From positions 30,001 to 62,000 of the forward strand of contig NC_015067.1 of the NCBI RefSeq assembly GCF_000196555.1: a stretch of 32,000 nucleotides of DNA. Reading direction: 5' to 3'. Positions within the stretch are counted from its first letter, which is position 1. Each line of letters begins with the position of its first letter. Source of the DNA: Bifidobacterium longum subsp. longum JCM 1217. GTDB lineage: Bacteria; Actinomycetota; Actinomycetes; Actinomycetales; Bifidobacteriaceae. Below are positions 8,253 through 23,017 of the stretch, piece by piece. The translations under genes were made by a program, and so were the position numbers. The notes beneath the pieces were generated by a model, which was not told the DNA's origin, searched no databases, and saw nothing but the letters and a program-made list of their open reading frames with translations.

Positions 8253-8335
8253 CCCCTTTCACCATCTTGCAATAATTCTTACATGTAAGAACTCTCTGTT
8301 AACATGTAAGAATTATTGCAAGATGGTGAAAGGGG
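8253..8335. repeat. perfect 34-bp-arm palindrome (15-nt spacer) abutting the start codon of the next gene
   Basis: CCCCTTTCACCATCTTGCAATAATTCTTACATGT (8253-8286) is the exact reverse complement of 8302-8335. The spacer is AAGAACTCTCTGTTA. The right arm ends in GAAAGGGG immediately before the ATG at 8336. Confidence 0.9.
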
Positions 8336-9991
8336 ATGCTCATGTTGCCGGCCAAAGAAAGTTTGACGGTTGAGTTCAAGAGTGAGCAGAAGCGCCCTCA
8401 ATCGCATGATGAAATTGTTGACAACGTAGTGGCTCTAGCCAATACCGAAGGCGGCACACTGTATCTCGGTATTGAAGACGATGGCACTGTGACCGGCGTA
8501 TGTGACGAGCATCGCAATATCAATGGACTTGCGGTACTAATTTTCAATAAGACTGTTCCGCAGCTTCCCGCTCGCGTGGCGCTCTTGTATGAGAACGAGG
8601 TGCCGATAGTCAGTATTGAGGTGGATAACAGTCAGCAAATCGTATCTACCAGTCAGGGGAAGACATTGCAGCGCCGGCTGAAAGCAGACGGCTCGCCTGA
8701 GGTCGTTCCGCTGTTTGTTTCCCAATTCATTAGCCGTTTATCTCAGCAACGGTTCTACGATTTCAGTGCGCAACCTGCCCCAGAGGCTCGGTTGGACGAT
8801 TTGAATCCAGACTCACGGAACAAGTTGAGAAGCCATATTCGCAGTGCCAATGCGCAAAACTCGTTGTTGTCTTTTACTGATGAGGATTTCGATCGGGCAC
8901 TTGAGCTGGTTGTTGATGGCCCGTATGGATTGCAGCCATCTGTTGCTGGTCTGCTCACCATTGGTTCGGTTGATGCTATTCATCGATCGGTTCCAGCCGC
9001 ATCGGCTGTTTTTCAAGTGATGAAAGGCATGTCTCCAAAGGTCAATATGGATCCGTTCGTGTTGCCCTTGGTGGATATGTTTGATCGTGTAGGCGAGCTG
9101 ATGGAGCCGTGGAATCCCAGCCACGAAGTCATGAGCGGCTTGATTCGGGTCGATCTGCCAGACTTCGATCGAGGGGCATTCCGTGAGGCAATGATTAACG
9201 CTTTCTGCCATCGCGATTATGCACGAATGGGTTCGGTGAGGTTCCTGGTTGATGATGATGGGTTGACCATAGCCAACCCCGGAGGATTCATAGAGGGTGT
9301 TTCCGAAGATAACCTGCTTACTGCACAACCGCGTTCCCGCAATCCGCAGCTTGCCCTGATTCTGAAAGCTGCCGGATATGTTGAACGCACCGGACGAGGC
9401 GTGGATACCATCTATGCCGGGTCGATTGCGGCAGGCGGTTCTTTCCCGGATTATTCACAGTCCAGTGCTGAGGAAGTTATCTTGTTCTTGCGCCGCGTGG
9501 TACCTGACGAGGCATTCGTAACCATGATTGGCGACGAGGAACGTCGACGTGGGGCTCCATTGCCGGTCTGGTCACTGATTGTGCTCTCGCTGCTGCGTGA
9601 GCATCGTAGGCTTACCGTGGTCCAATTGTGCGATTTTTCTCATTTGGAGCATCGACGCATCGTGTCCGCTGTTGAGAATCTGGTGGAAGCTGGTTTGGTA
9701 GAGGGGGTCGGTAGCGGGAGCTCTCGTTCGTATATGCTGAGTGCCCGAGTGTACAAACGTTCAGAGGGGCTGGCGTCTTACGTGCGCCAGCGTGACATCG
9801 ATGCCACCCGGCGCAGTGGCCTTGTTCTGGAGTTCGCCGAAAAAAATGATGGTGTCGTCACTACGGCGGATGTCATGGATTTGTTTGGCCTGAGCTATAT
9901 CAGTGCATACCGGGTGTTGAAGAAGCTAGAGGATGCGGGCAAGTTGCGCCGCGAGGGGAATGGACCGTCATCCCGATACGTGTTGGAATGA
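8336..9991 (+). CDS. Schlafen/AlbA_2-domain protein with HATPase_c_4-like and C-terminal winged-helix regions (putative DNA-binding/ATP-binding protein)
   Basis: N-terminus ESLTVEFKSEQKRPQSHDEIVDNVVALANTEGGTLYLGIEDDGTVTGV matches the AlbA_2 (Schlafen-like) signature. The central region (NAFCHRDY...ANPGGF...RSRNP...ERTGRGVDTI) matches HATPase_c_4-like proteins annotated as RecG-like C-terminal transcriptional regulators. G+C is lower than in the flanks, by eye. Confidence 0.7.
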   Translation: MLMLPAKESLTVEFKSEQKRPQSHDEIVDNVVALANTEGGTLYLGIEDDGTVTGVCDEHRNINGLAVLIFNKTVPQLPARVALLYENEVPIVSIEVDNSQQIVSTSQGKTLQRRLKADGSPEVVPLFVSQFISRLSQQRFYDFSAQPAPEARLDDLNPDSRNKLRSHIRSANAQNSLLSFTDEDFDRALELVVDGPYGLQPSVAGLLTIGSVDAIHRSVPAASAVFQVMKGMSPKVNMDPFVLPLVDMFDRVGELMEPWNPSHEVMSGLIRVDLPDFDRGAFREAMINAFCHRDYARMGSVRFLVDDDGLTIANPGGFIEGVSEDNLLTAQPRSRNPQLALILKAAGYVERTGRGVDTIYAGSIAAGGSFPDYSQSSAEEVILFLRRVVPDEAFVTMIGDEERRRGAPLPVWSLIVLSLLREHRRLTVVQLCDFSHLEHRRIVSAVENLVEAGLVEGVGSGSSRSYMLSARVYKRSEGLASYVRQRDIDATRRSGLVLEFAEKNDGVVTTADVMDLFGLSYISAYRVLKKLEDAGKLRREGNGPSSRYVLE

Positions 9992-10013: not shown

Positions 10014-10086
10014 CTTTCATCACCTTTCAATAATTCTTTCATGTAAGAACTCTCTGTTTACATGTAAGAATTATTGCAAGATGATG
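10014..10086. repeat. second, degenerate copy of the 8256-8328 palindromic element
   Basis: It aligns without gaps to 8256-8328 with about 6 mismatches in 73 bp. The right arm ACATGTAAGAATTATTGCAAGATG is identical, and the left arm carries 4 substitutions. Confidence 0.85.
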
Positions 10087-10095
10087 CAAGATGCA

Positions 10096-10138: not shown

Positions 10139-10157
10139 ATATGCGCTGGTGTGTAGA

Positions 10158-10386
10158 TCAGCCTGTGTTCTGCAGGCCGGCAGCGACGCCGGAGACGGTG
10201 CACAGGATGAGGTAGATGAATCCTGCCTGTTGGCTTTGCGAGAGCTCTTCCTTGTCCACCTTCTTGCGCAGCGACCTGAGGGCGAGCACCTGGGTGACGG
10301 ACAGCGCGTCCACGTACGGGGAGCGGATGCGGATGGCCTGGCCGAGCACGTGGCGGTGCTGCAGCGGCCACTTGTCGCCCACGATG
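10158..10386 (-). pseudogene. ppc: detached 3' fragment of ppc (last ~75 codons plus stop)
   Basis: ORF 10158..10382 translates to GDKWPLQHRHVLGQAIRIRSPYVDALSVTQVLALRSLRKKVDKEELSQSQQAGFIYLILCTVSGVAAGLQNTG. This equals the C-terminus of the full ppc at 19979.. with one K/R difference. I counted about 10 nucleotide mismatches, mostly synonymous. Homology ends near 10386. Confidence 0.9.
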
Positions 10387-10482: not shown

Positions 10483-11760
10483 TTAACTTTCGTCAGACAC
10501 ATCGTAAATCCCGTCCAAGTATCCGTATCGTCCGTTGTGCTTGTCCTTCGAGAATTCGACGATATTGATGTTATCGTCAAGAGGAATGCCAGCCATGTGA
10601 TTCGTGTTTTCGATAATGATGATTTGTTGTGAAACCGCTTGTTTCGCTAGATAGGAAAACAGGCCCACTTTCATGGATGAGTCTTCCAGGGGTCGTATTC
10701 CTTCGTCAAACCCATGCAGAGGCGTATCAATAAGCAGCCAACCCGGAGTATGCTTTGACTGTTCATTGAGATAATCATGAAATGCGAGCATAACAACGCT
10801 GTTAAGAAATGCGCAGTATCCCTTGCCTTGTTCATCAGCCTTGGAATACCCTGCTATTTCGACATCAAAAGAAGATCTGCTGAAATCTGCAGTATCAGCA
10901 CCTTGAAAATGACATTGTTGCAGAATGCTGCGTATGGTGTTATTCATGGAATACCAGAAATCACTCTGGAAACATTCGCGTGGCTTGTATTTTTCATCAT
11001 TCTGTGTTGCTTGACCAGCGTCATCGAGTGCCTTGTTGAAACGAGCATGCAGCGCTATGAGTTCCGCATATTCCGCATGCAATTGTTCTGCATGGGCAAT
11101 TTGCTCAATATCTTGTTGCATGTGCTGCGCTGTTGGTTGAATGTCGGATTTGAGCGAATGCATATTTTGCCGATGCTGCTGTTTCTCCAGATGCAGCTCC
11201 TGTTGCACCTCATCGGCTTTGTCGACGAGGATGGCTAGATCGGTTTCAACGTCTGCTTGGATTCTGTGGATATGCTCAATTTCTGTTGAGACGATTAGAA
11301 TGTCCTGTTCAGTCGGCACAGACATGTGGATGGGGCTGTGGCAAAACTGACATGTGGCGGGATAGGCATGTGTGCGGGCATGTTTCATTGCCTGTAGTTG
11401 CAAATCAAGACGTGCAGCGTCTGATTCGTATTGACTGATAAGTACCTTACGTTGGCGAATAAGTACCTCAAGGTGCTCATATTGTTGATTAAGCTGAGAG
11501 ATATGTGAGATGGTATGGGCATCTCGATTGAGGAGAGTTTGTCTTTGCTGTTCTACGTGTAATGCTTTTTTGTGAAGGTCTTCCAAATAGGTGTGAATGG
11601 TCTTCCCCTCATTTGTTGCGATATGGCGCATCTCCTCAAGGTGTCTGATGCGAGGCTCTATATCATCCAACTGCTGATGGATGAACTGTTCCACGGCTTT
11701 TCTGCGGGCGTGACGTTCGCTGGCACTCTCTGTCTGTATGGAGTTGTCGATTTTTTTCAT
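10483..11760 (-). CDS. ABC ATPase, C-terminal portion (coiled-coil insert plus Walker B / D-loop / H-loop half) of an SMC/Rad50-like ABC-3C-type ATPase
   Basis: 425 aa. Residues ~20-260 are heptad-rich and helical with C137-Q-F-C140 at the midpoint. The C-terminal part has ...GKGYCAFLNSVVMLAFHDY...GWLLIDTPLHGFDEG...IIIIENTNH. It overlaps the upstream ORF by 98 nt in a different frame. Confidence 0.75.
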   Translation of the reverse strand: MKKIDNSIQTESASERHARRKAVEQFIHQQLDDIEPRIRHLEEMRHIATNEGKTIHTYLEDLHKKALHVEQQRQTLLNRDAHTISHISQLNQQYEHLEVLIRQRKVLISQYESDAARLDLQLQAMKHARTHAYPATCQFCHSPIHMSVPTEQDILIVSTEIEHIHRIQADVETDLAILVDKADEVQQELHLEKQQHRQNMHSLKSDIQPTAQHMQQDIEQIAHAEQLHAEYAELIALHARFNKALDDAGQATQNDEKYKPRECFQSDFWYSMNNTIRSILQQCHFQGADTADFSRSSFDVEIAGYSKADEQGKGYCAFLNSVVMLAFHDYLNEQSKHTPGWLLIDTPLHGFDEGIRPLEDSSMKVGLFSYLAKQAVSQQIIIIENTNHMAGIPLDDNINIVEFSKDKHNGRYGYLDGIYDVSDES

Positions 11761-12316
11761 CTTGAACTAGCACGAGCAACGAGGACAGACTTTGTGTGAG
11801 AGTTGCTAGAGAGGTACTTTTGGGGAAAAGAATGGAGGGGCGTGCACGTCCTATTTGGTCCTCGGGGACAATCATGAGATGTCTGATGGCATTCCATGTG
11901 AAAGCAACTGTATGGTAGGTTTCGTTTGTCGCTATTCTACGGGTTGATTCAACGCCTAGTAAGGCAAGAAGAACCGTATTGATTGATTTACCGGCACGTG
12001 ATGAAACGGAGTAGGAACCGGGGACGATCATTGGGTTGCTGGATTTTACATGGATAGTGTTCTGAACGTGAATCGAACGACTAAGCGAAACCTCACCGCC
12101 GTTGGTCACGAACGTGACCTGTGCAATTTCATAGGCAGTTTTATCGGTAAAGGGGAGCTCTTTCCCTCCGCAGGCAAATTCCACGGTTTTTGCGATTCTG
12201 GTTTTCCCGGTGTTCGAAGCGCCGATAATGCAGTTCAGCCCGCATGTGAGATTAATGGCGGATTCCACTCCGTCCTTTCTGATTGCCGAAATTCGACGTA
12301 TCCATGTGTTTCTCAT
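11663..12316 (-). CDS. ABC ATPase, N-terminal portion (Walker A half), out of frame with 10483..11760
   Basis: Walker A LNCIIGASNTGKTRI. The last ~35 residues (…DEKNRQLHTDRECQRTSRPQKSRGTVHPSAVG) look like out-of-frame read-through after the A7 tract at 11751-11757. The start overlaps the upstream stop by 4 nt (ATGA). Confidence 0.75.
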   Translation of the reverse strand: MRNTWIRRISAIRKDGVESAINLTCGLNCIIGASNTGKTRIAKTVEFACGGKELPFTDKTAYEIAQVTFVTNGGEVSLSRSIHVQNTIHVKSSNPMIVPGSYSVSSRAGKSINTVLLALLGVESTRRIATNETYHTVAFTWNAIRHLMIVPEDQIGRARPSILFPKSTSLATLTQSLSSLLVLVQDEKNRQLHTDRECQRTSRPQKSRGTVHPSAVG

Positions 12317-12732
12317 AACTGGTTGTTCTCTTTCGTTATTCGGTTCATGATGGTTTCATAATCGTTTTTTATCAAGAGCTGAACAGCCTGTCGATAGGAG
12401 GCAGCGTAATCGCCGTGCAATGCTTCCGAATATTGGAAACATTCCGGAGTGGCGCGGTACAACAGGCAAGTGGAATCCACGGTTGCTGCTCCAACGATTA
12501 CGAGTTGGGCTAATCCTGCTTGTATTCGTTTGCGACGAGCATCATATTCGGCTAAAGCATGTGGACCATCGCCGTGAAGATTGCGCTGTCCGAATCCGAA
12601 TGTTTTCATATAGGTGGCGATAAGGTCAATGGCTGTGATTTCGTCAATTGTGGAAGGTCTAGAAAGAAGGGGAAGGCATAATGTCAATCGTGTTGCTGTT
12701 TCCTGTGTTGTGTTAAATAATGAATTATTCAT
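12313..12732 (-). CDS. small alpha-helical protein, candidate ABC-3C 'middle component'
   Basis: 139 aa, sandwiched between the CTD-bearing gene and the ABC ATPase with 8-nt and 4-nt overlaps. Size and position fit the middle-component families. The assignment rests on architecture, not on a computed hit. Confidence 0.6.
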   Translation of the reverse strand: MNNSLFNTTQETATRLTLCLPLLSRPSTIDEITAIDLIATYMKTFGFGQRNLHGDGPHALAEYDARRKRIQAGLAQLVIVGAATVDSTCLLYRATPECFQYSEALHGDYAASYRQAVQLLIKNDYETIMNRITKENNQL

Positions 12733-13795
12733 TTTCGTGTACCCACTCCAGCATATGGTCGTTGACCAGCATATGACACAGCCCTTTCTTTTCCGCTGCC
12801 TTAATCATTGATGGGAATTGGGCTATAACTGAACCGGATAGGGGGAAACCGGCTGCCTGAGATAGCGTTGCTCGCATGCGTAACAGTCCATCGGCGTAAT
12901 CAGATGCGCAGGTATCGCATATTCCGTCATAAAGATCAACCTTCAGTGCATCAAATTCTTGCTCTCCGTTTTCTATAACATCCCGTAGATTCCTGCGCAT
13001 TCCTTCCGCATCGTAAAAATATTCACGTTGCTTGGCGTATTCAGGACGACATGTCTGAGGAAGATCGTCGGAACAGTTGATTGGCTTGTGCAAGTGATCG
13101 GCATAGGCGGCTTGCATCTGCGTGAGGTATGTCTTTTCAAGATGATCATCTGGTTTATCCGGTGGAATTGGATAAGCCTTCCAGGGGACCGAAGAGCGCC
13201 CAAGGTGCAATTTGCCGTTGTTGATGCGACCAGACGCCAGAGGTAAGTTTTCGAAAATATCGAATTTCGGCTGAAAGCTTATGCCGTCGATGAGAATGTC
13301 ACGTCCACCGGCATTCGCCTGGAGTATTGACAGAAGCCATTTTCCTGTGGCAGAAGGAAGCTCACTGATATCCGTAACTCTAATATTTGCCTTGATAAGC
13401 TCCTTTTGAAAATCGGCAAGGGCATCAATGCTGATATCGCAGCAAAGACGTTCTACTTTCGAGATATCTAGGCGCTGATAAAACTCGGCGGCTTTCCAGG
13501 CAGGAATCTTCTTGCGACCGTTATAAAAACGAGTCAGATCAGTATCGTTGATTCCAGACCAGACCCCGGTGGTAATAGTGGTCTTTCCGGGTTTGCGGTT
13601 TCGATGATGTTGGGGAAGTGGATTTCTTAGACCGTCATCCTCTAACACAGCATCGAAGAAATCCTTCATAAATCCCTTTTTGTGGTGGTCTACGCCAGAT
13701 ATATAAGGGTTTACGAGCTGACAGAAGACTCCCAGAGCATAGGTAGCAGTAGTTTCGGCCAAGTGAGTCTCCTTCTCGTCTCCATTTGTCTTCAT
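12725..13795 (-). CDS. ABC-3C-type effector-component candidate: unknown N-terminal domain plus ABC-3C C-terminal-domain-like tail
   Basis: ORF 12725..13951. I prefer the ATG at 13795 (MKTNGDEK...), which is preceded by GGAAGG. The C-terminal ~110 aa (YFYDAEGMRRNLRDVIENGEQEFDALKVDLYDGI...KKGLCHMLVNDHMLEWV) resemble the CTD that couples effectors to ABC-3C ATPases. The N-terminal ~250 aa have no motif I recognise. Confidence 0.6.
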   Translation of the reverse strand: MKTNGDEKETHLAETTATYALGVFCQLVNPYISGVDHHKKGFMKDFFDAVLEDDGLRNPLPQHHRNRKPGKTTITTGVWSGINDTDLTRFYNGRKKIPAWKAAEFYQRLDISKVERLCCDISIDALADFQKELIKANIRVTDISELPSATGKWLLSILQANAGGRDILIDGISFQPKFDIFENLPLASGRINNGKLHLGRSSVPWKAYPIPPDKPDDHLEKTYLTQMQAAYADHLHKPINCSDDLPQTCRPEYAKQREYFYDAEGMRRNLRDVIENGEQEFDALKVDLYDGICDTCASDYADGLLRMRATLSQAAGFPLSGSVIAQFPSMIKAAEKKGLCHMLVNDHMLEWVHENE

Positions 13796-14212
13796 CCGTC
13801 GCCTTCCCATGAGGTCACTGTTCCTACGATGGAAGCCAGATTCAGACGAATAAGCCGGTAAAACACTGGAATATCGCCAGTATACGCCGCTTACAGCTGG
13901 ATCAGAGAAGCGCAACTTTCGTCTATTGAAAGGATTTGAGACCAGACACATCGTAATTTCTTCTTCAACTCGATGTCATGCGATAACCGGTTATAGAAGT
14001 AGGGCATTGGGCTGTTCATCCGTTGTGCCGCAGTGAAGCTGACTGGGGCTTTTAACTAATCACATGCATGAGATCTGCCTGCTTATTCATGGTGACGCGT
14101 CGGTTTTCTCCTGAACTGACGCGTCATGCTTATCCAGCAGGTTGGATGCTCATGTGGTGGCCTATGCAAGCAGGTCTCGAAGACCCAATAACTGGGTGGG
14201 ATCGAGACTGGA

Positions 14213-14809
14213 ATGAGAATTTCATTGAAACATGAGGCAATGCGCGCCGGTAATGTGTCCGTAACTGATATATACAACTGTTCGGAAGTGGAATTACGGA
14301 CGATGGTTGAACGCGATAGATGTTTGCGCGCAATCCGTATGGGTTGTTCGCCACGTGATATTGCACTACGTACCCCTCAAACGATACTTCAGGAATTGTG
14401 GAATGCGGAGGAACGTTCCGCTCACGCTTATTATCGATCGGACCGTGTCAGCGGAGTTATTTGCTCCTATGAGGATTTGGTTGGTGCAGGGCGGGAACCC
14501 CAGGGGTGTTCTGCTTCTTCTGAGGATATTCTCTTATGCGCGGAGGATGCGAGAGAAAGAGCTAACTGTTTGCAAGCTATCTTTGCGGAGATCGAAAAAC
14601 TGCCAGCAGGTCAGCGCAATATCGTCAGGGGTGTACTGGTAAAGGGGGCATCTCAATCAGATATGGCACGAGAGCTGGGCGTGTCCCGAGCTGCGGTGTC
14701 CAAACAGCTTTCAACGGCTGTGCGCAAAATTCGTGCCGCTATTCGCGACGAAAGCAAAGAAACGAAGAACACGACAACATCAGCAGTTTGTGAAAGAAAG
14801 GAGCATTAA
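14213..14809 (+). CDS. sigma-70 region-4-type HTH protein (divergent ECF/TcdR-like sigma factor or late-gene activator)
   Basis: C-terminus IEKLPAGQRNIVRGVLVKGASQSDMARELGVSRAAVSKQLSTAVRKIRAAI is a clear sigma70_r4_2 pattern. The N-terminal part lacks an obvious region 2. The start codon is uncertain (alternatives at 14240 and others). Confidence 0.65.
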   Translation: MRISLKHEAMRAGNVSVTDIYNCSEVELRTMVERDRCLRAIRMGCSPRDIALRTPQTILQELWNAEERSAHAYYRSDRVSGVICSYEDLVGAGREPQGCSASSEDILLCAEDARERANCLQAIFAEIEKLPAGQRNIVRGVLVKGASQSDMARELGVSRAAVSKQLSTAVRKIRAAIRDESKETKNTTTSAVCERKEH

Positions 14810-15039
14810 TGGTTCATTTCAGTGTTATCAGAGTGAAAGGAAGCCCGTCATATGACTTCGATGCATGCGGAGACATTTTGGCTATGGCCAAAGCTGTAGG
14901 TGTCATGACGGAAAACATGCGCACTGATCGCTGCGACAATACACAGTGTGATGGAAGTCGTTGTAAGGGAAACACTATGTTTCGGTTGGAGTTAGACACC
15001 GAAAATCGCAGAGTTCATCGCAGACGCCATGCCAGATGA
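14809..15039 (+). CDS. small Cys-rich ORF translationally coupled to the sigma-like gene (hypothetical; possible anti-sigma/partner)
   Basis: TAATG stop/start overlap at 14807-14811. The 76-aa product contains CGD...CDNTQCDGSRC. No family was recognised. Confidence 0.35.
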   Translation: MVHFSVIRVKGSPSYDFDACGDILAMAKAVGVMTENMRTDRCDNTQCDGSRCKGNTMFRLELDTENRRVHRRRHAR

Positions 15040-15133
15040 AACGCCCGAGGTTAACACCTCGTGGCGAAACGGCAGTGCAGGTGAGGGCAGATATTGGGTC
15101 TGCCTTCAGCAACAGGTCCCGAAGGAGGACATC

Positions 15134-17530
15134 ATGACTGATCAGATGGTGCTGCAGACGCAGCAGTGGCTGAACAAGACATACGGGAATGATCCCCGAT
15201 TCAAGAAAATCAACCCGGACGGCAGAACTGGTTGGCCGACAATCTATGCGCTTACTCGCGCATTGCAGATTGAATTGGGCATCCAGTCCACTGCCGATAA
15301 CTTCGGTCCTTCCACCCAGCGGTTATTCAAGCAGCGGTATCCGAATGGGGTGCGGCAGCAGGCAGTTGCGGACAAGAGCACTTCCAACGTGTATTCCATC
15401 ATTCAGGGGGCGCTGTGGTGCAAGGGCTACTCCACTGGTGGCAACATCTCACAGCATTTCTACGACGGAACAGGTTCCGCGATCAGGAAGCTTAAGGCTG
15501 ATATGGGCATAGAGGGAGATTCCAGCGTAGACGTTGAGATCATGGGGGCGTTGCTCTCGATGAAGCAGTTCGTGCTGCTGGCCTCTTATGGCGGTATCGA
15601 CTCCGTCCGTAGGGCACAGCAGTTCATCAACAAAGCATATCGTCCATACACGGGCATCATTCCGACTGATGGACTGTACGGCAGGGAGATGAACACGGCT
15701 CTTATCCAGGTGCTTCAGTCGCTTGAAGGTTTTTCACCCAGTGAGGCAACGGGGAATTTCGGCAACGGAACTAGATCTCGTTTGAAAACGATAACAGCAA
15801 ATAACGCATCCTCTAATGAGTCGTGGGTCTGGCTCGCCAGCACGGCTTTGGCGTGTAATGGGATCGGGGGCGGGCCGACCTTCGTATGGACGAGCACGTT
15901 CGCCAATATCGTGAAAGCGTTCCAGGAGCGTTATGCCATTGCTGTGACGGGCTCTATTGATTCGACCACGTGGATGAGCCTGTTGACATCTAAAGGTGAT
16001 CCTGACCGTCCGTGTGTGGCCTGTGACACTAGGTTCGAAATTACCGACGCCAGGTTGGCGACGTTGAAGGCAGACGGGTATGAAATCGTGGGACGTTATC
16101 TGACGGAGCCTGGCCAGTCGTCGTTGGCGCCCAAGGATTACTTTAAGGCCATCCGTCCGGGTGAGCTCGAGCGCATCACTCGGGGCGGCATGCGGTTCTT
16201 CCCGATCTTCCAGGAGTACTCCACGAAGCTGGAGCATTTCACCCCGGCAAACGGCGCTGCTCATGCCAAGACCGCTCGTGAGGCGGCGCAGCGTCTTGGC
16301 ATCCCTCCCACCCATATCTACTTCGCTGTAGACTTCGATGCGACCGATGACCAGGTGACCAGCAATATCCTGCCATACTTCCGTGCGGTTTGTTCGTCTC
16401 TTGGTGGTGGATACGGAGTAGGGATTTACGCGTCCCGCAATATTTGTTCCCGCGTCATCGGTGCGGGATGCGCGAGTAACGCGTTTGTGTCCGACATGTC
16501 GACGGGATTCTCGGGCAATCTCGGCTTCCCCATCCCGGACGGTTGGGTCTATGACCAGTTCACCGAGATTGACGATTACAAGGGCCAGGGCTGGGATCTG
16601 GACCGTGTTGCCTATTCCGGGAAGGTATCAGCATGCGCTTCACTGTTGCCTGCCGTGCCAGTGCCTGCGCCTGATCCCGATCCCGTCTCGCCAGAAACGG
16701 ATCCGCTGCTAAGATGGGTCGCCGTCACGGAGCAGGAGTGTCGCAAAGCCCTTGCCGCTCTGGGTACCCAGGTAGCGGTTTACGAGGACAGCATCGGTCA
16801 ATTCATCCTGGAATGGCTCCGCAAACCTGAATACTGGTCGGAAGGCGGTAGCGGGACACAAGCAATGTGGCACGCATATACTCCTGAAGTTTCGACTCCG
16901 CCCGACTTGGACGCGGCGCGTGTGGTATGTGCCAATGTATGCGAAGCACAGCCTTCAATTAAAGAGAAACTGCCATCGACTCGAGATGTTGCACACATGG
17001 CTGCAACTGCTCTCGGATACCTGACATGGGGTATCGAAAACAATCCAGCCAAATATGGTCTAGGCGATTTAGGTGGCTGGCCTCTCGACTTGTTGCAGAT
17101 CTGGGGTGCCTATCGCCGTGACGGCAAGCATGCCGACTTGGCAGCATGGCTCTATAAGCACCTTGGGAAAGATGAAGGATTCGGGTACGATGACGTTCTT
17201 GCGGATGCAGATGCATGGCTAATTGCTTCTAGTATGAGGAAACGATCCGGTTCGACGGTTCTTTCTGCTGCTATGCGTGAAACGTTTAAGCAGAGTGAGA
17301 CCCATCGTATCGTTCGATTCTACGACGAACGTTTTGCATCAAGCGCAGATAATGTGGTGAGTGCATATTCAACAATGGCGGACGGTCTTGATGCACTTGG
17401 TTTGACAAATATTGGAATGAGCGAAAGCATCCTAAAAAAGGCTGCCGGTACAGACAAGCTTCCTGATAAGCAGGAAGCTGAAGTGAGTGCTCGGGCGTTC
17501 GCTGCATTCATTGATCAGCCAAGACGGTAG
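15134..17530 (+). CDS. 798-aa multidomain protein: N-terminal peptidoglycan-binding-like repeats, DUF1906 (Rv2525c-like glycoside-hydrolase-like) domain, Pro-rich linker, unknown ~270-aa C-terminal domain
   Basis: Start at the ATG at 15134 behind GAAGGAGGA. There are four PG_binding_1-like helical repeats (VLQTQQWLNKTYG...GWPTIYALTRALQIELGI etc.). The DUF1906-like core spans ~16020-16640 (LKADGYEIVGRYL...FFPIFQE...HIYFAVDFDA...GVGIYASRNICSRV...GWVYDQF). The linker is PAVPVPAPDPDPVSPETDP. No N-terminal signal peptide or TM segment is present. Confidence 0.8.
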   Translation: MTDQMVLQTQQWLNKTYGNDPRFKKINPDGRTGWPTIYALTRALQIELGIQSTADNFGPSTQRLFKQRYPNGVRQQAVADKSTSNVYSIIQGALWCKGYSTGGNISQHFYDGTGSAIRKLKADMGIEGDSSVDVEIMGALLSMKQFVLLASYGGIDSVRRAQQFINKAYRPYTGIIPTDGLYGREMNTALIQVLQSLEGFSPSEATGNFGNGTRSRLKTITANNASSNESWVWLASTALACNGIGGGPTFVWTSTFANIVKAFQERYAIAVTGSIDSTTWMSLLTSKGDPDRPCVACDTRFEITDARLATLKADGYEIVGRYLTEPGQSSLAPKDYFKAIRPGELERITRGGMRFFPIFQEYSTKLEHFTPANGAAHAKTAREAAQRLGIPPTHIYFAVDFDATDDQVTSNILPYFRAVCSSLGGGYGVGIYASRNICSRVIGAGCASNAFVSDMSTGFSGNLGFPIPDGWVYDQFTEIDDYKGQGWDLDRVAYSGKVSACASLLPAVPVPAPDPDPVSPETDPLLRWVAVTEQECRKALAALGTQVAVYEDSIGQFILEWLRKPEYWSEGGSGTQAMWHAYTPEVSTPPDLDAARVVCANVCEAQPSIKEKLPSTRDVAHMAATALGYLTWGIENNPAKYGLGDLGGWPLDLLQIWGAYRRDGKHADLAAWLYKHLGKDEGFGYDDVLADADAWLIASSMRKRSGSTVLSAAMRETFKQSETHRIVRFYDERFASSADNVVSAYSTMADGLDALGLTNIGMSESILKKAAGTDKLPDKQEAEVSARAFAAFIDQPRR

Positions 17531-17629: not shown

Positions 17630-18145
17630 CTAAAAGGCCGCTATGCCGAGGAAGAGTCCTGTAATACCGGTGGCCATCAATACGATGATGGTGATGATTC
17701 CGGCGAAGATGCGTACAGGAAGGGTTTCTTTTCCATGGTTTGATGGGCTGTCCGCAACTAATCTCATTACTCCAGCTGTAACCCAGCAAACTGCGCCCAG
17801 GACTAGTGCCAGGAATTCTCGACACCATTCCGTTTCAAGTGCGGGAATGCCGACGATTGATGACGGGTCGCTTGCCAGTCTTGGCGGAATAGCGCATAGG
17901 ATACGCTCCAATATCAGGTAAGGGGTATCAAAATGGATCAGAGTCAAAGCGAATGGGAGCTGTAGCGCCAGTCCTATCCACCACAGCGTGCGTCGGATGG
18001 TCGCGAGTCTGTCGCCCGGCCTAGTGTCCGGCTTGCCGCCTTCGCCCTCCGTCCCGGCACCGTCCGCGGGCGTGTGGTCCCCCTCGTGCGCGTCCGTCGT
18101 CCCGTCCGTGTCCCTTTCCGCGTCCATATGTCCCCCTCCGATCAT
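17630..18145 (-). CDS. 3-TM membrane protein with charged N-terminal tail (candidate immunity/holin-like partner), copy 1
   Basis: ORF 17630..18319 trimmed to M59 (MIGGGHMDAERD...), because its paralog starts at the same MIGG motif and the upstream 58 codons lie in the ppc-downstream repeat. Hydrophobic segments: TLWWIGLALQLPFALTLIHF, FLALVLGAVCWVTAGVMRLV, IFAGIITIIVLMATGITGLFLGIAAF. Confidence 0.65.
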   Translation of the reverse strand: MIGGGHMDAERDTDGTTDAHEGDHTPADGAGTEGEGGKPDTRPGDRLATIRRTLWWIGLALQLPFALTLIHFDTPYLILERILCAIPPRLASDPSSIVGIPALETEWCREFLALVLGAVCWVTAGVMRLVADSPSNHGKETLPVRIFAGIITIIVLMATGITGLFLGIAAF

Positions 18146-18320
18146 CCGAGTCTGTCGCTCGGCCCGCGCGCCCGTTCCGTGCGCGCCGTCGCCGGCCAGT
18201 CTAGGGCCGTGCGACGCGAACGGGGAGGCCCGCGCCGTCAATCGGCACGGAACCTCCCCGTTCATCAAGCGGTCGGACAGCCGCGGATCAGCCCGTGTTC
18301 CGCAGGCCGGCGGCGACACC
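18123..18320. repeat. internal copy of the ppc stop-proximal ~30 nt plus ~140-bp ppc-downstream spacer
   Basis: It aligns with 19815-20011: CCGATCATCCGAGTCTGTC.CTCGGCC...GCCAGTCTAGGGCCGTGCGACGCGAACGGGGAGGCCCGCGCCGT...TCAGCCCGTGTTC.GCAGGCC.GCGGCGAC. It includes the hairpin CGGGGAGG...CCTCCCCG. Confidence 0.85.
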
Positions 18321-19128
18321 CGAGCAGGAGTGTCACAAAGCCCCTGCCGCTCTGGGTACCCAGGTGGCGGTTTATGAGGACAGCATCGGTCAACTCATCC
18401 TGCAATGGCTCCGCAAACCTACGTACTGGTCGGAAGGTAGTTCCGGCACGCAGGCACTATGGCATGCATACACACCGGAGCCGGTTACTCCCAGCGAATT
18501 GGCCTTGTCGCGTCAGGCATGCGGTGTCGCATGTGATGCACAGCCTGTCATCAAAGGCACGCTGCCCAATCGGGACATCGCCCATATGGCTGCCACATCC
18601 TTGGGATACTTGACATGGGGCGTTACGAACGATCCAATGGACTATGGTCTCGGTGATCTGGGCGGATGGGCTCTGGATTTGCTGCAGATTTGGGGAAGCT
18701 ACCTGGCGAATACCCCGAAAGAGGACCTGGCGTCATGGCTGCACGCTCATCTCGGCGAGCAAGACGCTCGTATGGGATTCAGTTACAGCGATGTTCTCGC
18801 GGACTGTGATGCATGGTTGCTGGCGCGGTCCATGCAGAGCAATTCTTCCGAAAGGTCTTTGTCCACCGCTATGCGGGACATGTTCGCGCAAAGCGAGACG
18901 AATCGAATTAAACGGTTCTATCAGTCCCGGTTCAAGGGAAGTGCGGACAACCTGGTCATCGCATTTCGAAAGCTTGTTGATGGAATCGATCTTGGAATAT
19001 TCGATAACGTATCCGGAAGTAAAAAAGCACTGCTCATTGCGTCACATGCAGACCGACTCCCGAGTCAAGCGGAGGCTGGTATATTGGCATTATCCTATGC
19101 TGAATCTCTTGAAAATCCGAACCGTTAA
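18295..19128 (+). CDS. stand-alone paralog of the C-terminal domain of the 15134..17530 protein (5'-truncated 'orphan' module)
   Basis: From ECHKAPAALGTQVAVYEDSIGQLILQWLRKP onward it aligns with residues after the Pro-rich linker of the large protein. Shared blocks are HMAATxLGYLTWG, YGLGDLGGWxLDLLQIWG and SDVLADxDAWL. The only in-frame start is a GTG at 18295 inside ppc-derived sequence, with no SD and no upstream ATG. Confidence 0.6.
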   Translation: MFRRPAATPEQECHKAPAALGTQVAVYEDSIGQLILQWLRKPTYWSEGSSGTQALWHAYTPEPVTPSELALSRQACGVACDAQPVIKGTLPNRDIAHMAATSLGYLTWGVTNDPMDYGLGDLGGWALDLLQIWGSYLANTPKEDLASWLHAHLGEQDARMGFSYSDVLADCDAWLLARSMQSNSSERSLSTAMRDMFAQSETNRIKRFYQSRFKGSADNLVIAFRKLVDGIDLGIFDNVSGSKKALLIASHADRLPSQAEAGILALSYAESLENPNR

Positions 19129-19198: not shown

Positions 19199-19834
19199 TC
19201 ATAGAGTCATTAGAGCGGAAAGTAGCGTTATCACAAGAACGGGAAAGACCATGACCAGCACGAGAAACGATATGATTCCCACAAGGACATGCGAGGCGGA
19301 AGAGGAATGATCACGAAGTTCCGGATATACAGATCGCATATATGAACGCACGCCAAAGATGACAAGCGCCGCAATCCAGCAGACTACCCCCATAATCAAT
19401 ACTAAGGTAAGTCTACGTACATACTCAGTTGCCGTAGTTAAATTCATGCACGAAGAGGAAGAGAACGTTAAGACTCTGCAGATTATAGTATCATCATCGC
19501 CATTGGCGCCCCATTCCGCCCACAAAATAAGTGCTGGTGAAAGCAGCAGTAATCCCAGCCACCATAGCACGCGTCTGGCCTTGCCCAAAGCCACATAGCA
19601 TCTACTCGCCTTAAGGAATTTGGTAGCTGCTTTCGGTGCCAAAGCATATTTCTTGCCGGAAAAATTTTCTGACGTATCTTCCAGGCCATGTTTTTTCCCA
19701 ATGTCATCGATCATAGCCGGATTCGCTTTGCAAATGTGGCGTTCGTTTCCGGCATCGCCCTCCGCCTTGATGCCGTCCGTTGGCCCGGTGCTCCCGCGCT
19801 CATTCGATGGCTTGTCCATGTCCCCTCCGATCAT
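19199..19834 (-). CDS. 3-TM membrane protein with charged N-terminal tail, copy 2 (paralog of 17630..18145)
   Basis: 211 aa, starting MIGGDMDK. Hydrophobic segments: VLWWLGLLLLSPALILWA, LTLVLIMGVVCWIAALVIFGV, VLVGIISFLVLVMVFPVLVITLLSALMTL. It shares the RxLWWxGL and VCWxxA motifs with copy 1. Confidence 0.7.
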   Translation of the reverse strand: MIGGDMDKPSNERGSTGPTDGIKAEGDAGNERHICKANPAMIDDIGKKHGLEDTSENFSGKKYALAPKAATKFLKASRCYVALGKARRVLWWLGLLLLSPALILWAEWGANGDDDTIICRVLTFSSSSCMNLTTATEYVRRLTLVLIMGVVCWIAALVIFGVRSYMRSVYPELRDHSSSASHVLVGIISFLVLVMVFPVLVITLLSALMTL

Positions 19835-19978
19835 CCGAGTCTGTCACTCGGCCAGCGCGCCCGTTCTATGCGCGCCGTCGCCGGCCAGTCTAGGGCCGTG
19901 CGACGCGAACGGGGAGGCCCGCGCCGTTTATCGGCACGGAACCTCCCCGCTCGCTTTTCCCGATCGGTCGGCCGGGAA

Positions 19979-22732
19979 TCAGCCCGTGTTCTGCAGGCCC
20001 GCGGCGACGCCGGAGACGGTGCACAGGATGAGGTAGATGAATCCGGCCTGTTGGCTTTGCGAGAGCTCTTCCTTGTCCACCTTCTTGCGCAGCGACTTGA
20101 GCGCCAGCACCTGAGTGACGGACAGCGCGTCCACGTATGGGGAGCGGATGCGGATGGCCTGGCCGAGCACGTGACGGTGCTGCAGCGGCCACTTGTCGCC
20201 CACGATGGCCAGAACCCACTTGCGGGTGAGCTCCATCTCGTTGAGTACCTTCTCATTGAGGTCCTCGCGGTCGCCGAGGGCAAGGTACATCCTGGCGATG
20301 CGCTCATCCGTCTTGGCGATGGACATCTCGATGTTGTCGATGAAGGTGGAGAACAGCGGCCATTCCTCGTAAGCCTGACGCATGGTCTCCAGATCGCCGA
20401 ACTTCTCGCATGCGGTGCCGAGACCGTACCAGGCGGCCAGGTTGATGCGGGCCTGAGCCCAGGAGAAGATCCACGGAATCGTGCGCAGGTCGTCGAGCGA
20501 CTTGGCGCCGAGGCCACGCTTGGCCGGGCGGGAGCCGATCGGCAGCAGGCCGATTTCGGTCAGCGGCGTAACGATCGAGAACCACGGGGCAAAGCCGTCG
20601 GTGTTCAACAGGTCGAGGAAGCGGTTGTGCGCGGCCTCGTCGAGCTGAGCGGCCATGTCGGCATACTTCTCGGTCATCTCGGTGTTGCGCTTCTCCACGC
20701 TCGGCGCGGACTGCAGCAAGGTCGCCGCAGCCACGGACTCGACGTGGCGGATGGCCAGCACCGGGTTGCCGTAACGGGCGAAGATGACCTCGCCCTGCTC
20801 GGTGAGCTTGAAGCGGCACTTGACGGAACCGACCGGCTGGGCGAGCACCGCGCGGTTGGCGGGGCCGCCGCCACGACCGACGGCACCGCCGCGGCCATGG
20901 AACAGGGTCAGGTCGATGTCGTGCGACTCAGCCCATTTGGCGATGCGCTCCTGAGCGGAGTGCAGGGCCAGCGTGGCGGAGGTCGGGCCGGCGTCCTTCG
21001 AGGAGTCGGAGTAGCCGAGCATGACCTCGAGCTTGTTGCCGGTGGCCTTCAGACGAGCCTGAACCTCGGGGATCTTGATCATTTCCTCGAGCACGTCCAC
21101 CGAGTTCTGCAGATCCTCAAGCTGCTCGAACAGCGGGATCACGTCGATGGTGGGCACGTCCTCCGGGTGGGAGAAGGCCAAGCGGTTGAGCTCGTAGACA
21201 TCCTTGATGTTCTGGGCGCTCTTGGTGAAGGAGATGATGTAGCGGCGGGCGGCCTTGAGGCCGTTGCGCTTCTGGATGGCACCGAGGGCGCGGAAGGTGT
21301 CGAGCACCTCGTGCGTCATCGGCTGCAGTTCGCCGCGCTCGCCGTGCAGGCCGTGCTCGCGGATATCCGCAAGGGCGCGGGCGTGCACCACGGAGTGCTG
21401 ACGGAACTCCATCTCCACCATGTGGAAGCCGAAGGTCTCGGTCTGCCAGATCAGATCCTGCAGCGGGCCGTAAGCGGAACGCTTGGCACCGGCGGCGGCC
21501 AGCGAACGCTGGACCACCTTGAGGTCGGCGAGGAAGTCGTCGCAGGAGTGGTACATGAGGTCGGCGTCGCGCTCGATGGTGTAGTGCAGACGATCGGCCA
21601 TCACCAGCATGACCGCGCGGTGCATCTCCTTGGTGGAGATCAGGGCGGCCTTGTCGGTCAGGCGCTCGCTCATTTCCTTCTGGTGGCTCCAGAGGCTCTT
21701 GAGCTCGGCGCTCGGCGGCGTGGTCTCGGCTTCCATCGTGAGGTTGCGGCCCACGGTGCGGGTGGCTTGCTCAAGGGCGGCGATCACGTGATCGGAGAAC
21801 TTGCGGGCCACGGCGCGGCTCACCTTGGCGGTGACGTTCGGGTTACCGTCGCGGTCGGAGCCGATCCAGCTGCCCGGGTGGAAGAACGCGGGGCAAGCGG
21901 GCTCGACGAGACCGGCCTTATCGCCCAGGACCCAGTCGTCGAAGCGACGGTAGACCTTGGGGATGGTGTTGAACAGCGTGTTGTCGAAGATGTCGAGAAT
22001 CGTGTCCGCTTCCTCAACCGGGGTCGGCTTCTTCAGCGCGATCGGAGAGGTGCGGAACAGGGCGTCGATCTCGTTGTAGAGACGGCGCAGGCATTCCTTC
22101 TTATCCGAGCCGCCGAGGCGCTTGTACTCCTCAAGCAATTCGGAAACGCGGCGAATCTTGCCTTCCACGGCCTTGCGACGGGCCTCAGTGGGGTGCGCCG
22201 TGAAGACGGGGTGGAATTCGAGCTGGTTGAGCAGTTCCTTGGCCTTGGCCGGGCCAGTCTCATTGATGAGCTGGTGGTAGGCGACGGTGAGCTCGTTGAT
22301 CGGGTCGACCGCCTGGTCAACGGGCACGTTGTTCTCGCGCTCGTGGAGCACGGAAACGCGGTAGTTCTCCTCGGACAGGTTTGCCAGATGGAAATACGTG
22401 GCGAACGCGCGGGCCAGCAGCTGGGCGTCGTGCAACGTCATGTTGTCGATGACGTTCACGGCCTCCTTCAGGCCATCCTGGTCGGGGTTCGGATCCTTCA
22501 GCTCGGCGAAATGCTCGGCGCTGGCCTCCACCGCGTAATGACGCACGGTGTCGAACGTAGACAGCAGTTCGGGGTTGTATTCGCCCAGTACGTTACGCAG
22601 GATCTCAAGACACAGATCCATGTCGTACTTCAGGCTTTCGGGAAGATCATGCTCCTCCGGGCCCTTTCGGCCGGTCCCGGTAGTGACGATGGCGGCGTCA
22701 GCGGGAGTGATCTGTTCTTCAGGTGTTGCCAT
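19979..22732 (-). CDS. ppc: phosphoenolpyruvate carboxylase
   Basis: ORF 19979..22822 trimmed to the ATG at 22732 (MATPEEQ...), preceded by AAGGAGG, giving 917 aa. Conserved Ppc blocks: VFTAHPTE, GSWIGSDRDGNP, MLGYSDSSKD, FHGRGGAVGRGGGP, and the C-terminal LQNTG. Confidence 0.95.
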   Translation of the reverse strand: MATPEEQITPADAAIVTTGTGRKGPEEHDLPESLKYDMDLCLEILRNVLGEYNPELLSTFDTVRHYAVEASAEHFAELKDPNPDQDGLKEAVNVIDNMTLHDAQLLARAFATYFHLANLSEENYRVSVLHERENNVPVDQAVDPINELTVAYHQLINETGPAKAKELLNQLEFHPVFTAHPTEARRKAVEGKIRRVSELLEEYKRLGGSDKKECLRRLYNEIDALFRTSPIALKKPTPVEEADTILDIFDNTLFNTIPKVYRRFDDWVLGDKAGLVEPACPAFFHPGSWIGSDRDGNPNVTAKVSRAVARKFSDHVIAALEQATRTVGRNLTMEAETTPPSAELKSLWSHQKEMSERLTDKAALISTKEMHRAVMLVMADRLHYTIERDADLMYHSCDDFLADLKVVQRSLAAAGAKRSAYGPLQDLIWQTETFGFHMVEMEFRQHSVVHARALADIREHGLHGERGELQPMTHEVLDTFRALGAIQKRNGLKAARRYIISFTKSAQNIKDVYELNRLAFSHPEDVPTIDVIPLFEQLEDLQNSVDVLEEMIKIPEVQARLKATGNKLEVMLGYSDSSKDAGPTSATLALHSAQERIAKWAESHDIDLTLFHGRGGAVGRGGGPANRAVLAQPVGSVKCRFKLTEQGEVIFARYGNPVLAIRHVESVAAATLLQSAPSVEKRNTEMTEKYADMAAQLDEAAHNRFLDLLNTDGFAPWFSIVTPLTEIGLLPIGSRPAKRGLGAKSLDDLRTIPWIFSWAQARINLAAWYGLGTACEKFGDLETMRQAYEEWPLFSTFIDNIEMSIAKTDERIARMYLALGDREDLNEKVLNEMELTRKWVLAIVGDKWPLQHRHVLGQAIRIRSPYVDALSVTQVLALKSLRKKVDKEELSQSQQAGFIYLILCTVSGVAAGLQNTG

Positions 22733-23017
22733 ATAACCTCCTTTGCCGAATAACAGGTTGCTCGGTCTACTGGTCGTCTGCGGCTCCTCCGCAGTTGTTG
22801 AGACCAGTCGTTGCGAGCCCACAGCCCATATTCAACGTGGTTGTTGTGTGGGCAATAGTGTATCCCCGCGAAATCGCTTTTTACGTTACGAAGTCCATAT
22901 AGTGCGCCAAGTTGTCCACCTATAGAGACCGAATATCGGACAGCATATGAGACACTGTCCGATTCGCGGAAGATTTGAGCGCCTTACGATTGCTGGCGGG
23001 GAAGGCAGGGAGTAGTA

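Follow-up and report, generated by a model that had tools for sequence, protein, structure and literature searches.

Three overlapping genes on the minus strand of the window analysed here, a stretch of 32,000 nucleotides from Bifidobacterium longum subsp. longum JCM 1217 (contig NC_015067.1, positions 30,001 to 62,000), raise the question of which system they encode and by what kind of output their first product would act. A preliminary description, made from the letters of the DNA, had read them as an ABC-three-component (ABC-3C) operon, that is, an effector with a C-terminal coupling domain, a small middle component and a coiled-coil ATPase, and the Pfam matches to CTD6 and MC2 together with the PADLOC match to LmuB bear out this architecture. 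Taken as a whole, the locus is very probably a short-type Lamassu (that is, ABC-3C) operon, lmuA-lmuC-lmuB, of the CTD6/MC2 subfamily, with a non-catalytic helical output domain and an lmuB gene disabled by a frameshift. About 10-15% of prokaryotic genomes contain a Lamassu system. One superfamily goes by the names ABC-3C, Lamassu and DdmABC (PMC10586767), and the earlier remark that ABC-3C systems are essentially uncharacterised is out of date, as Lamassu, the same family, has been studied with phage and plasmid assays (10.1101/2022.05.11.491447; PMC12663957; 10.1101/2025.03.14.643221) and, from 2025, by cryo-electron microscopy. The features of the operon are the following.

12725..13762, minus strand: lmuA, the ABC-3C effector component, 345 aa from TTG 13762 (CTD6 and PADLOC LmuA matches)
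13301..13744, minus strand: all-helical module at the N-terminus of LmuA, residues ~18-165 in the numbering of a 356-aa version (AlphaFold2, AF2; profile search)
13181..13240, minus strand: three-stranded beta-meander of LmuA with a GKLHLG motif, between the module and CTD6 (AF2 secondary structure)
12743..13138, minus strand: CTD6 coupling domain of LmuA (PF20282; weak Foldseek matches to solved LmuA chains)
12313..12732, minus strand: lmuC, ABC-3C middle component 2, 139 aa (PF20288 MC2; PADLOC LmuC)
10483..12316, minus strand: lmuB, SMC/Rad50-like ABC ATPase, 610 aa when repaired, with a +1-nt frameshift in the window
11663..12316, minus strand: N-terminal open reading frame (ORF) of lmuB, 217 aa
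10483..11760, minus strand: C-terminal reading frame of lmuB, 425 aa
11751..11757, minus strand: A7 homopolymer, the frameshift site, A6 in intact alleles (sequence; comparison with the metagenome contig L001)
12200..12223, minus strand: Walker A GASNTGKT of LmuB, residues 32-39 (G32, S34 and K38 invariant in 19 relatives)
11341..11352, minus strand: zinc-hook CxxC of LmuB (CQFC, residues 322-325) at the coiled-coil apex (C322 and C325 invariant in 19 relatives)
10597..10740, minus strand: motifs of the C-terminal LmuB head, WLLIDTP Walker B (10720-10740), HGFDEG (10699-10716) and IIIENTNH (10597-10620) (conservation)

Identity of the operon

The operon belongs to the Lamassu/ABC-3C family. 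The tail of its first protein, already suspected to be an ABC-3C C-terminal domain, matches Pfam PF20282 (CTD6) over the full model, positions 1-130 (E=2.2e-35; 122 bits against a cut-off of 26.4), and the LmuA segments that had been quoted (YFYDAEGMRRNL, KKGLCHMLVNDHMLEWV and TDLTRFYNGRKKIPAWKAAEFYQRL) are all present in the sequence. The 139-aa helical protein in the middle is LmuC and matches PF20288 (MC2; E=1.1e-20; 74.5 bits against a cut-off of 26.9). PADLOC calls all three genes, as LmuA, LmuC and LmuB: LmuA is scored by two LmuA models, PDLC03852 (3e-60) and PDLC03857 (4e-57), LmuC by PDLC03875 (1.6e-24), and the two LmuB fragments by PDLC03867 over model positions 1-197 (5e-42) and 189-605 (1.8e-91), the intact LmuB allele discussed below reaching 8e-141 across positions 1-605 of this model.

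The third gene encodes an SMC/Rad50-type ABC ATPase, as previously described, with GASNTGKT, WLLIDTP, HGFDEG and IIIENTNH all in place, and D530, P532, Q564, E569 and N570 are invariant in the alignment of 19 relatives, as is the IIEN motif. The CxxC zinc hook (CQFC) in its coiled coil is a feature absent from that description. When the profile of the 19 LmuB relatives was compared with the PDB, the first matches were the solved Lamassu LmuB chains (9hqu/9hqx, 9uxl, 9ny5), followed by SMC and Rad50. A housekeeping RecN, SbcC or RecF identity was considered and rejected, because no RecN, RecF or SbcC model of NCBIfam matched LmuB at E<=0.1 and the gene lies in a low-GC island rather than in a repair-gene context. 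As LmuB of short Lamassu systems has ~600 aa (PMC12663957), the 610 aa of the repaired protein, together with its CxxC hook, place the operon among the 'short' Lamassu.

The genes overlap by 8 nt at 12725-12732 and by a 4-nt ATGA at 12313-12316, as the ORF map confirms. The first protein had been given as 356-408 aa, which is too long. The longest ORF of this gene spans 12725..13951 (408 aa at most), with in-frame alternative starts at ATG 13795 (356 aa), 13810 (361 aa) and 13951 (408 aa). The TTG at 13762 has an AAGGAG Shine-Dalgarno sequence 6 nt upstream and yields 345 aa, the length of the RefSeq cluster, and the N-termini of the homologues (MA[DE]xxxxTYALG) align with LmuA starting there. 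Therefore, TTG 13762 is most likely the start of lmuA, and the 356-408-aa versions are probably over-extended.

The 408-aa LmuA and the 425-aa LmuB fragment are identical to BAJ65707.1 and BAJ65705.1 of B. longum subsp. longum JCM 1217. NCBI labels LmuC as 'ABC-three component system middle component 2' and LmuA as 'ABC-three component system protein', and a survey preprint counts the Lamassu family among the defence systems of Bifidobacterium. The locus is thus already catalogued: the operon is a known, ordinary and annotated kind of system.

Distribution among relatives

To survey the operon, a pattern scan with one genome per species was used, which gave 66 loci whose ORFs were searched with the three proteins by phmmer. 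The operon is conserved, lmuA, lmuC and lmuB being adjacent and in the same order in nearly all 66 loci wherever the contig allows. This co-occurrence, together with the CTD and MC profile matches and with an ATPase that groups with LmuB (by its PADLOC score and its nearest structures) and not with RecN, SbcC or RecF, supports the ABC-3C interpretation.

The close relatives (54-90% identity) are found in Collinsella, B. angulatum, B. ruminantium, Corynebacterium silvaticum, Propionimicrobium and Arcanobacterium. Across Clostridia, Negativicutes and Bacilli, more distant ones are widespread, at 24-31% identity and with the N-terminal domain still matching. In addition, the subtype is present in 38 IMG/VR viral contigs, in the Streptococcus prophage Javan630 and on many plasmids; Javan630 and the E. 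coli plasmids have the same three-gene order.

In seven loci (L035, L036, L038, L046, L048, L049 and L052), LmuA has 232-239 aa and lacks the helical module. LmuC is full length in all seven and a full-length LmuB ORF is found in six, L049 having only a partial ORF of 367 aa. In the one short LmuA scanned, from L036, the alignment to PDLC03857 begins at model position 143, ahead of the part that holds CTD6 only (~172-193 on). These short relatives are possible members of Clade O, the 'effector-less' clade of PMC12663957.

The N-terminal module of LmuA

An enzymatic effector domain is typical, if not universal, in this family. None was recognised at the N-terminus of LmuA by searches of Pfam, NCBIfam, PHROG and the PDB, in agreement with the earlier failure to assign this region to a nuclease, protease, TIR or other known domain. 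The Pfam scans covered 26 and 56 family members, and the PHROG search returned only families of unknown function. A hidden restriction endonuclease (REase) was nevertheless a candidate, as PDLC03852 seemed to cover the whole of LmuA; it was rejected, since BLASTP against the E. coli REase-CTD6 LmuA found homology in CTD6 only.

AF2 was run twice, first on an alignment of 17 sequences and then on one of 56, and the models have an overall predicted local distance difference test (pLDDT) of 79, with 84-94 in the helices. In both runs the module is confidently predicted to be all-helical (helices 20-31, 39-50, 84-92, 99-108, 111-118, 123-135 and 143-162), and is followed by the three-stranded beta-meander (189-204), with conserved G194, K195 and L196, and then by the helical CTD6. 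As isolated domain, the module found nothing significant in the PDB with Foldseek, and no match to it was found there by sequence; single-sequence PDB searches with LmuA, LmuB and LmuC likewise gave nothing usable. With the full-length LmuA model, the top Foldseek matches were weak and were the Lamassu LmuA chains 9hr5 and 9nxx, the sole compact one being that to the 154-residue chain 9hr5_D (TMt 0.53). In the BFVD, three uncharacterised Siphoviridae proteins (A0A8S5MGA8, A0A8S5TJH2 and A0A8S5Q7J1) share the fold of the module (probability 0.99-1.0), one of them 141 aa long with a TM of 0.70.

As the alignments were widened, the only invariant or near-invariant positions of the N-terminal domain were G93, A102, L196, D124, I157 and one Pro, and no polar residue of the module was conserved. 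In 70 proteins with different partner domains, the conserved module positions are only P, G and A. The conservation of the module is therefore not that of an enzyme; judged from these alignments, the pattern is structural rather than catalytic. In most relatives the module is acidic, with a pI of 4.5-6 and a net charge of -3 to -10.

The module is also mobile. A profile of the N-terminal domain, searched over 1.84 billion representatives, retrieved 328 cluster representatives at E<=1e-3 and 120 at E<=1e-10. Among the 70 longer matches, the Pfam partner domain is CTD6 in 28 and CTD11 in 16, and further partners are NB-ARC with TPR, NACHT, Sel1 repeats, MalT-like TPR, and TIR with vWA. One CTD11 locus consists of a CTD11-LmuA, MC7 and a DUF2326 ATPase, that is, a different Lamassu subfamily, and the NB-ARC and TPR protein is a single-gene STAND whose surrounding element also encodes a recombinase and a relaxase. 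Immune sensors of at least three kinds thus carry the module in their N-terminal 'effector' slot. Complete stand-alone copies of ~140 aa adjoin an XRE repressor gene on short metagenomic contigs (L122-L124; P0345), and these, like the Siphoviridae proteins of similar fold, may be decoys or anti-defence proteins.

As a separate observation, a 1713-aa protein with insect-allergen repeats (PF06757; P0261) is matched by the module profile at each of its eight repeats (summed E=6.5e-20), a similarity that is unexplained. With hhalign, the module and one PF06757 repeat gave a probability of 16.6%, and Foldseek did not recover the insect-allergen fold.

From its conservation and distribution, we infer that the module is probably a non-catalytic output or adaptor module. 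It is possible, and we propose it tentatively, that the N-terminus of LmuA represents an undescribed family of non-catalytic modules driven by oligomerisation and interchangeable across the CTD6 and CTD11 Lamassu and the NB-ARC and NACHT STANDs. If so, killing or arrest of the cell with no enzyme of their own would be an output common to Lamassu and STAND systems, and the stand-alone copies could be decoys that block it. Going by the sequence evidence, the output domain of a Lamassu subtype looks non-enzymatic and common to STAND NTPases and a second Lamassu subfamily, which makes the module a compact and widespread test case for how enzyme-less immune effectors stop an infection.

The module could act more specifically as an adaptor similar to the effector-associated domains (EADs) of NTP-dependent conflict systems (Kaur et al. 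2020, PMC7159879), in which case the released LmuA would recruit, by homotypic contact, a separately encoded effector carrying the same module. In that work, EADs are small, all-helical and devoid of enzymatic features, which also describes the module; it is fused at the termini of unrelated conflict-system cores (CTD6 and CTD11 LmuAs, NB-ARC, NACHT), and extra copies exist on a TIR-vWA signalling or effector protein, or alone. However, a second copy beside lmuA is absent in the window and in the related loci searched, the single-gene STAND carriers have no obvious partner nearby, and Pfam gave no match to the module at E<=1, any EAD models in the library included. With ~150 residues, it is also larger than what is generally held to be typical of EADs. 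A homotypic adaptor of this kind is therefore conceivable and somewhat doubtful.

Still less probable, and in our opinion improbable, is that the N-terminal domain is a helix-turn-helix (HTH) of the XRE/lambda-cI type through which the effector would bind DNA. The preliminary description had suspected an HTH around GINDTDLTRFYNGRKKIPAWKAAEFYQRLD, and hhalign indeed places exactly this segment on helices 3-4 of XRE repressors; nevertheless, this single comparison, with an XRE reference alignment built from textbook sequences, reached a probability of 0.6% (E=0.1). Several Foldseek matches to lambda cI, BldD and HTH_XRE proteins are very weak (E 5-9, probability at most 0.07), and Pfam HTH_3 was touched by only 2 of the 56 family members (E=0.022). 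In addition, the alignments contain no conserved basic residue, the module being acidic in most relatives and the HTH-like segment about neutral. The suspected HTH is consequently not retained, and a non-catalytic output or adaptor module is the reading we follow below.

The lmuB frameshift

In the window, the ATPase gene is split across two frames at an A7 tract (minus strand GATGAAAAAAATCG, 11751-11757). The removal of one A restores an uninterrupted LmuB of 610 aa without internal stop, in which the frame junction at the tract reads ...LVQDEKIDNSIQ.... Over the 3469-nt operon, L001 is 99.83% identical to the window and differs by 5 single-nucleotide polymorphisms (SNPs) and one indel, A6 instead of A7. 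This sole indel leaves L001 with an intact 610-aa LmuB; its lmuC, missed by the gene caller, is intact too.

Both alleles are common. The exact 217-aa N-terminal fragment of LmuB was found in 364 contigs (606 index blocks) and the exact C-terminal fragment in 45 contigs as the 425-aa form and in 373 as a 403-aa form, whereas the intact protein was found in at least 1000 contigs. The A7 carriers include the JCM 1217 record (BAJ65705.1, BAJ65707.1), LR134369.1, GCA_008917165.1, GCA_002108135.1 and metagenomes. The haplotypes were compared with five further A7 contigs and one close A6 locus, L001: the five, which include LR134369.1 and two other NCBI assemblies, lie 0-1 SNP from the window and share its haplotype. 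One of the five (L072, GCA_002108135.1) has four extra single-base indels (window equivalents 13138 and 11572-11584) that split lmuA and shorten the C-terminal fragment of lmuB, and which reflect either further decay or homopolymer sequencing errors.

The recurrence of A7 in hundreds of assemblies and on one haplotype shows it to be a real mutation rather than a sequencing error, and the allele looks like a single circulating haplotype. The break falls at LmuB residue ~188, between the N-terminal half of the head and the coiled coil, so that loss of function is the default expectation. Judging from its position, A7 is probably inactivating and the system in this window most likely switched off. 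Therefore, the common allele of the B. longum type strain carries a broken lmuB, many other strains having an intact one, and predictions of phage susceptibility based on mere presence of the operon could be misled by such alleles in this gut and probiotic species.

Alternatively, the A6/A7 tract could be a contingency switch by which a costly abortive-infection system is turned on and off by phase variation. The frameshift does lie within a coding homopolymer, the ON allele (A6, at least 1000 contigs) and the OFF allele (A7, 364 contigs or 606 index blocks) are both common, and over-expressed Lamassu is toxic (PMC12663957). However, the five A7 contigs share one haplotype and the A6 locus L001 is 5 SNPs away, which fits one ancestral mutation that spread clonally. 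Seven bases are also generally regarded as short for efficient slippage, a search with the pattern of the tract, in which the sequence of the site itself was not inspected, found no match in more divergent relatives, and the extra lmuA and lmuB indels of L072 are those expected from decay or sequencing error. In this small sample, evidence for recurrent phase variation is lacking, and we regard such a switch as rather unlikely. That the split is an artefact of sequencing or assembly, the gene being intact in the organism, is very improbable: some sequencing chemistries often err in homopolymer length, but the identical A7 is found in independent assemblies (metagenomes, GCA_008917165.1, GCA_002108135.1, LR134369.1) as well as in the JCM 1217 record (BAJ65705.1, BAJ65707.1), and it is linked to a distinct SNP haplotype.

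Proposed mechanism

In the solved Cap4-CTD7-MC3 systems, a LmuB dimer with LmuC sequesters the C-terminal domain of LmuA, DNA ends release it, and its oligomerisation activates it (PMC12663957; 10.1101/2025.03.14.643221). By analogy, the most economical expectation for an intact form of this operon is that it is controlled in the same way, by sequestration, release and oligomerisation. LmuA would be kept inactive, its C-terminal domain (CTD6 in this case) being sequestered by the LmuB dimer and LmuC, until the heads of LmuB bind aberrant or foreign DNA ends and LmuA is released. Free LmuA would then oligomerise through its C-terminal domain, bringing the N-terminal output domains into a cluster. 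The clustered module could act by protein-protein contacts, either as an adaptor that recruits or sequesters another protein or by being itself toxic once assembled.

Several points weigh against this overall interpretation of a non-catalytic output coupled to a disabled ATPase. The sequestration and oligomerisation model comes from Cap4-CTD7-MC3 and not from CTD6-MC2 systems, and protection against phages and plasmids that requires ATP binding by LmuB, LmuC and LmuA has been shown for other subtypes only. The module may have a cryptic enzymatic or lipid-binding activity, considering its weak similarity to the helical repeat of insect allergens. Likewise, no adaptor partner was found when a second copy of the module was sought in the six frames of the window and in 126 loci, where multiple matches per locus were only lmuA genes split by a frameshift or a stop. 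Finally, A7 may be rescued at a low level by transcriptional slippage, by +1 ribosomal slippage on AAA-AAA-A, or through separate expression of the halves. Restoring the frame needs a shift of +1, and the perfect re-pairing of tRNA-Lys on AAA-AAA-A, or the loss of one A in transcriptional slippage, could allow some read-through.

Genomic context

In B. longum, the 3' end of ppc is the site of a low-GC island that contains the operon. The lower GC content noted previously is confirmed: it is ~47% across roughly 10.0-14.5 kb and 60-67% in the flanks. The neighbouring genes in the window are listed here.

8336..9991, plus strand: Schlafen/AlbA_2-HATPase_c_4 gene with two winged-helix domains (MarR_2; AbiEi_4/DIP2311-like), 551 aa (domains; weak matches to the PADLOC Argonaute-associated PNTD)
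14213..14809, plus strand: sigma-70 region 4/KorA-like HTH gene, divergent from lmuA (Pfam Sigma70_r4, KORA)
15029..17530, plus strand: peptidoglycan hydrolase-like gene, 833 aa, PG_binding_1 and Rv2525c-like glycoside-hydrolase, endolysin-like (domains)
18205..19125, plus strand: partial paralogous copy of the C-terminal part of the hydrolase (similarity)

A direct repeat of the ppc 3' end (230 nt, 96% identical; 10157-10386 and 19978-20207) brackets the island, ppc itself (PEP carboxylase) being intact at 19979..22822 on the minus strand. The island itself contains a third, partial copy near 18270-18324 as well as a 131-nt repeat, within the stretches 18133-18324 and 19822-19952. The ppc repeats look like the trace of successive insertions at one attachment site, with no integrase left. 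The region 13962-17402 (3.4 kb, comprising the sigma-like gene and most of the hydrolase gene) is missing from the otherwise 99.9%-identical L001, which shows that the island is polymorphic.

Homologues of the sigma-like gene hold the same divergent position beside lmuA in Collinsella, B. angulatum, B. ruminantium and Arcanobacterium; among the loci compared, those of L001, Corynebacterium and Propionimicrobium lack it beside lmuA. The gene possibly encodes a regulator that travels with the operon, its membership in the system being uncertain. An unrelated Sigma70_r4 gene lies divergently upstream of a module-bearing STAND gene in another locus (L119). On the other side of the operon, the gene at 8336..9991 may be another defence-island gene. 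It is flanked by a 77-nt direct repeat, 91% identical (8256-8332 and 10014-10090), which is internally palindromic (…TTACATGTAAGAA…).

Comparison with known systems

The resemblance of the module to the EADs of PMC7159879 is functional only. EADs are also small, helical and non-enzymatic, located at the termini of unrelated cores, with extra copies on effector or signalling domains, in contrast to the module, which has neither a Pfam model match nor a second copy adjacent to it.

The gene set, its order and the overlap of the ORFs recur in the CTD6-MC2 systems of E. coli plasmids, which are short Lamassu/ABC-3C as well and have a LmuB of ~608-610 aa. Their LmuC and LmuB match the same sets of PADLOC models, and they are likewise carried on mobile elements or islands. 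In contrast, their LmuA has a PD-(D/E)xK-like REase N-terminal domain (GIDI...QCK) and aligns to the B. longum LmuA over CTD6 only, whereas the latter has a helical module, and lmuB is frameshifted here. This CTD6-MC2 Lamassu with a REase-like N-terminal domain is present in one of our loci (L076) and in 66 of 5426 complete E. coli genomes, at >=99% identity on many IncF plasmids; it is also found on some chromosomes (including that of E2348/69), and insertion sequence elements interrupt it in several records. A link between the CTD6 chassis and the experimentally tested Lamassu-Mrr of E. coli SE15 was sought and not established: the system was not found in positions 1-50,000 and 112,000-122,345 of plasmid pECSF1 (122,345 bp), and no SE15 record was found among 60 of the 68 matching E. 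coli records.

The solved Lamassu structures, namely the Salmonella LmuACB (9hqx, 9hr5) and the V. cholerae DdmABC/LmuACB (9uxl, 9nxx, 9ny5), share with this operon the SMC/Rad50-like LmuB, which is the best PDB match of our LmuB profile, and the operon logic; their LmuA chains are the top, albeit weak, Foldseek matches of the B. longum LmuA model. The control by sequestration, release and oligomerisation is likely shared too, if the analogy holds. However, the solved systems combine a Cap4 nuclease with CTD7 and MC3 and have a LmuB without zinc hook, instead of CTD6, MC2, a CxxC hook and a non-nuclease helical N-terminal domain, and single-sequence searches fail to link them to the B. longum proteins.

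Finally, the effector-less short Lamassu (PMC12663957) resemble the B. longum system in that LmuA lacks a recognisable effector domain; their LmuB and LmuC are intact. Nevertheless, the LmuA of B. longum is full-sized and has a conserved N-terminal module that also occurs in other systems, so that its case is not one of a missing domain.

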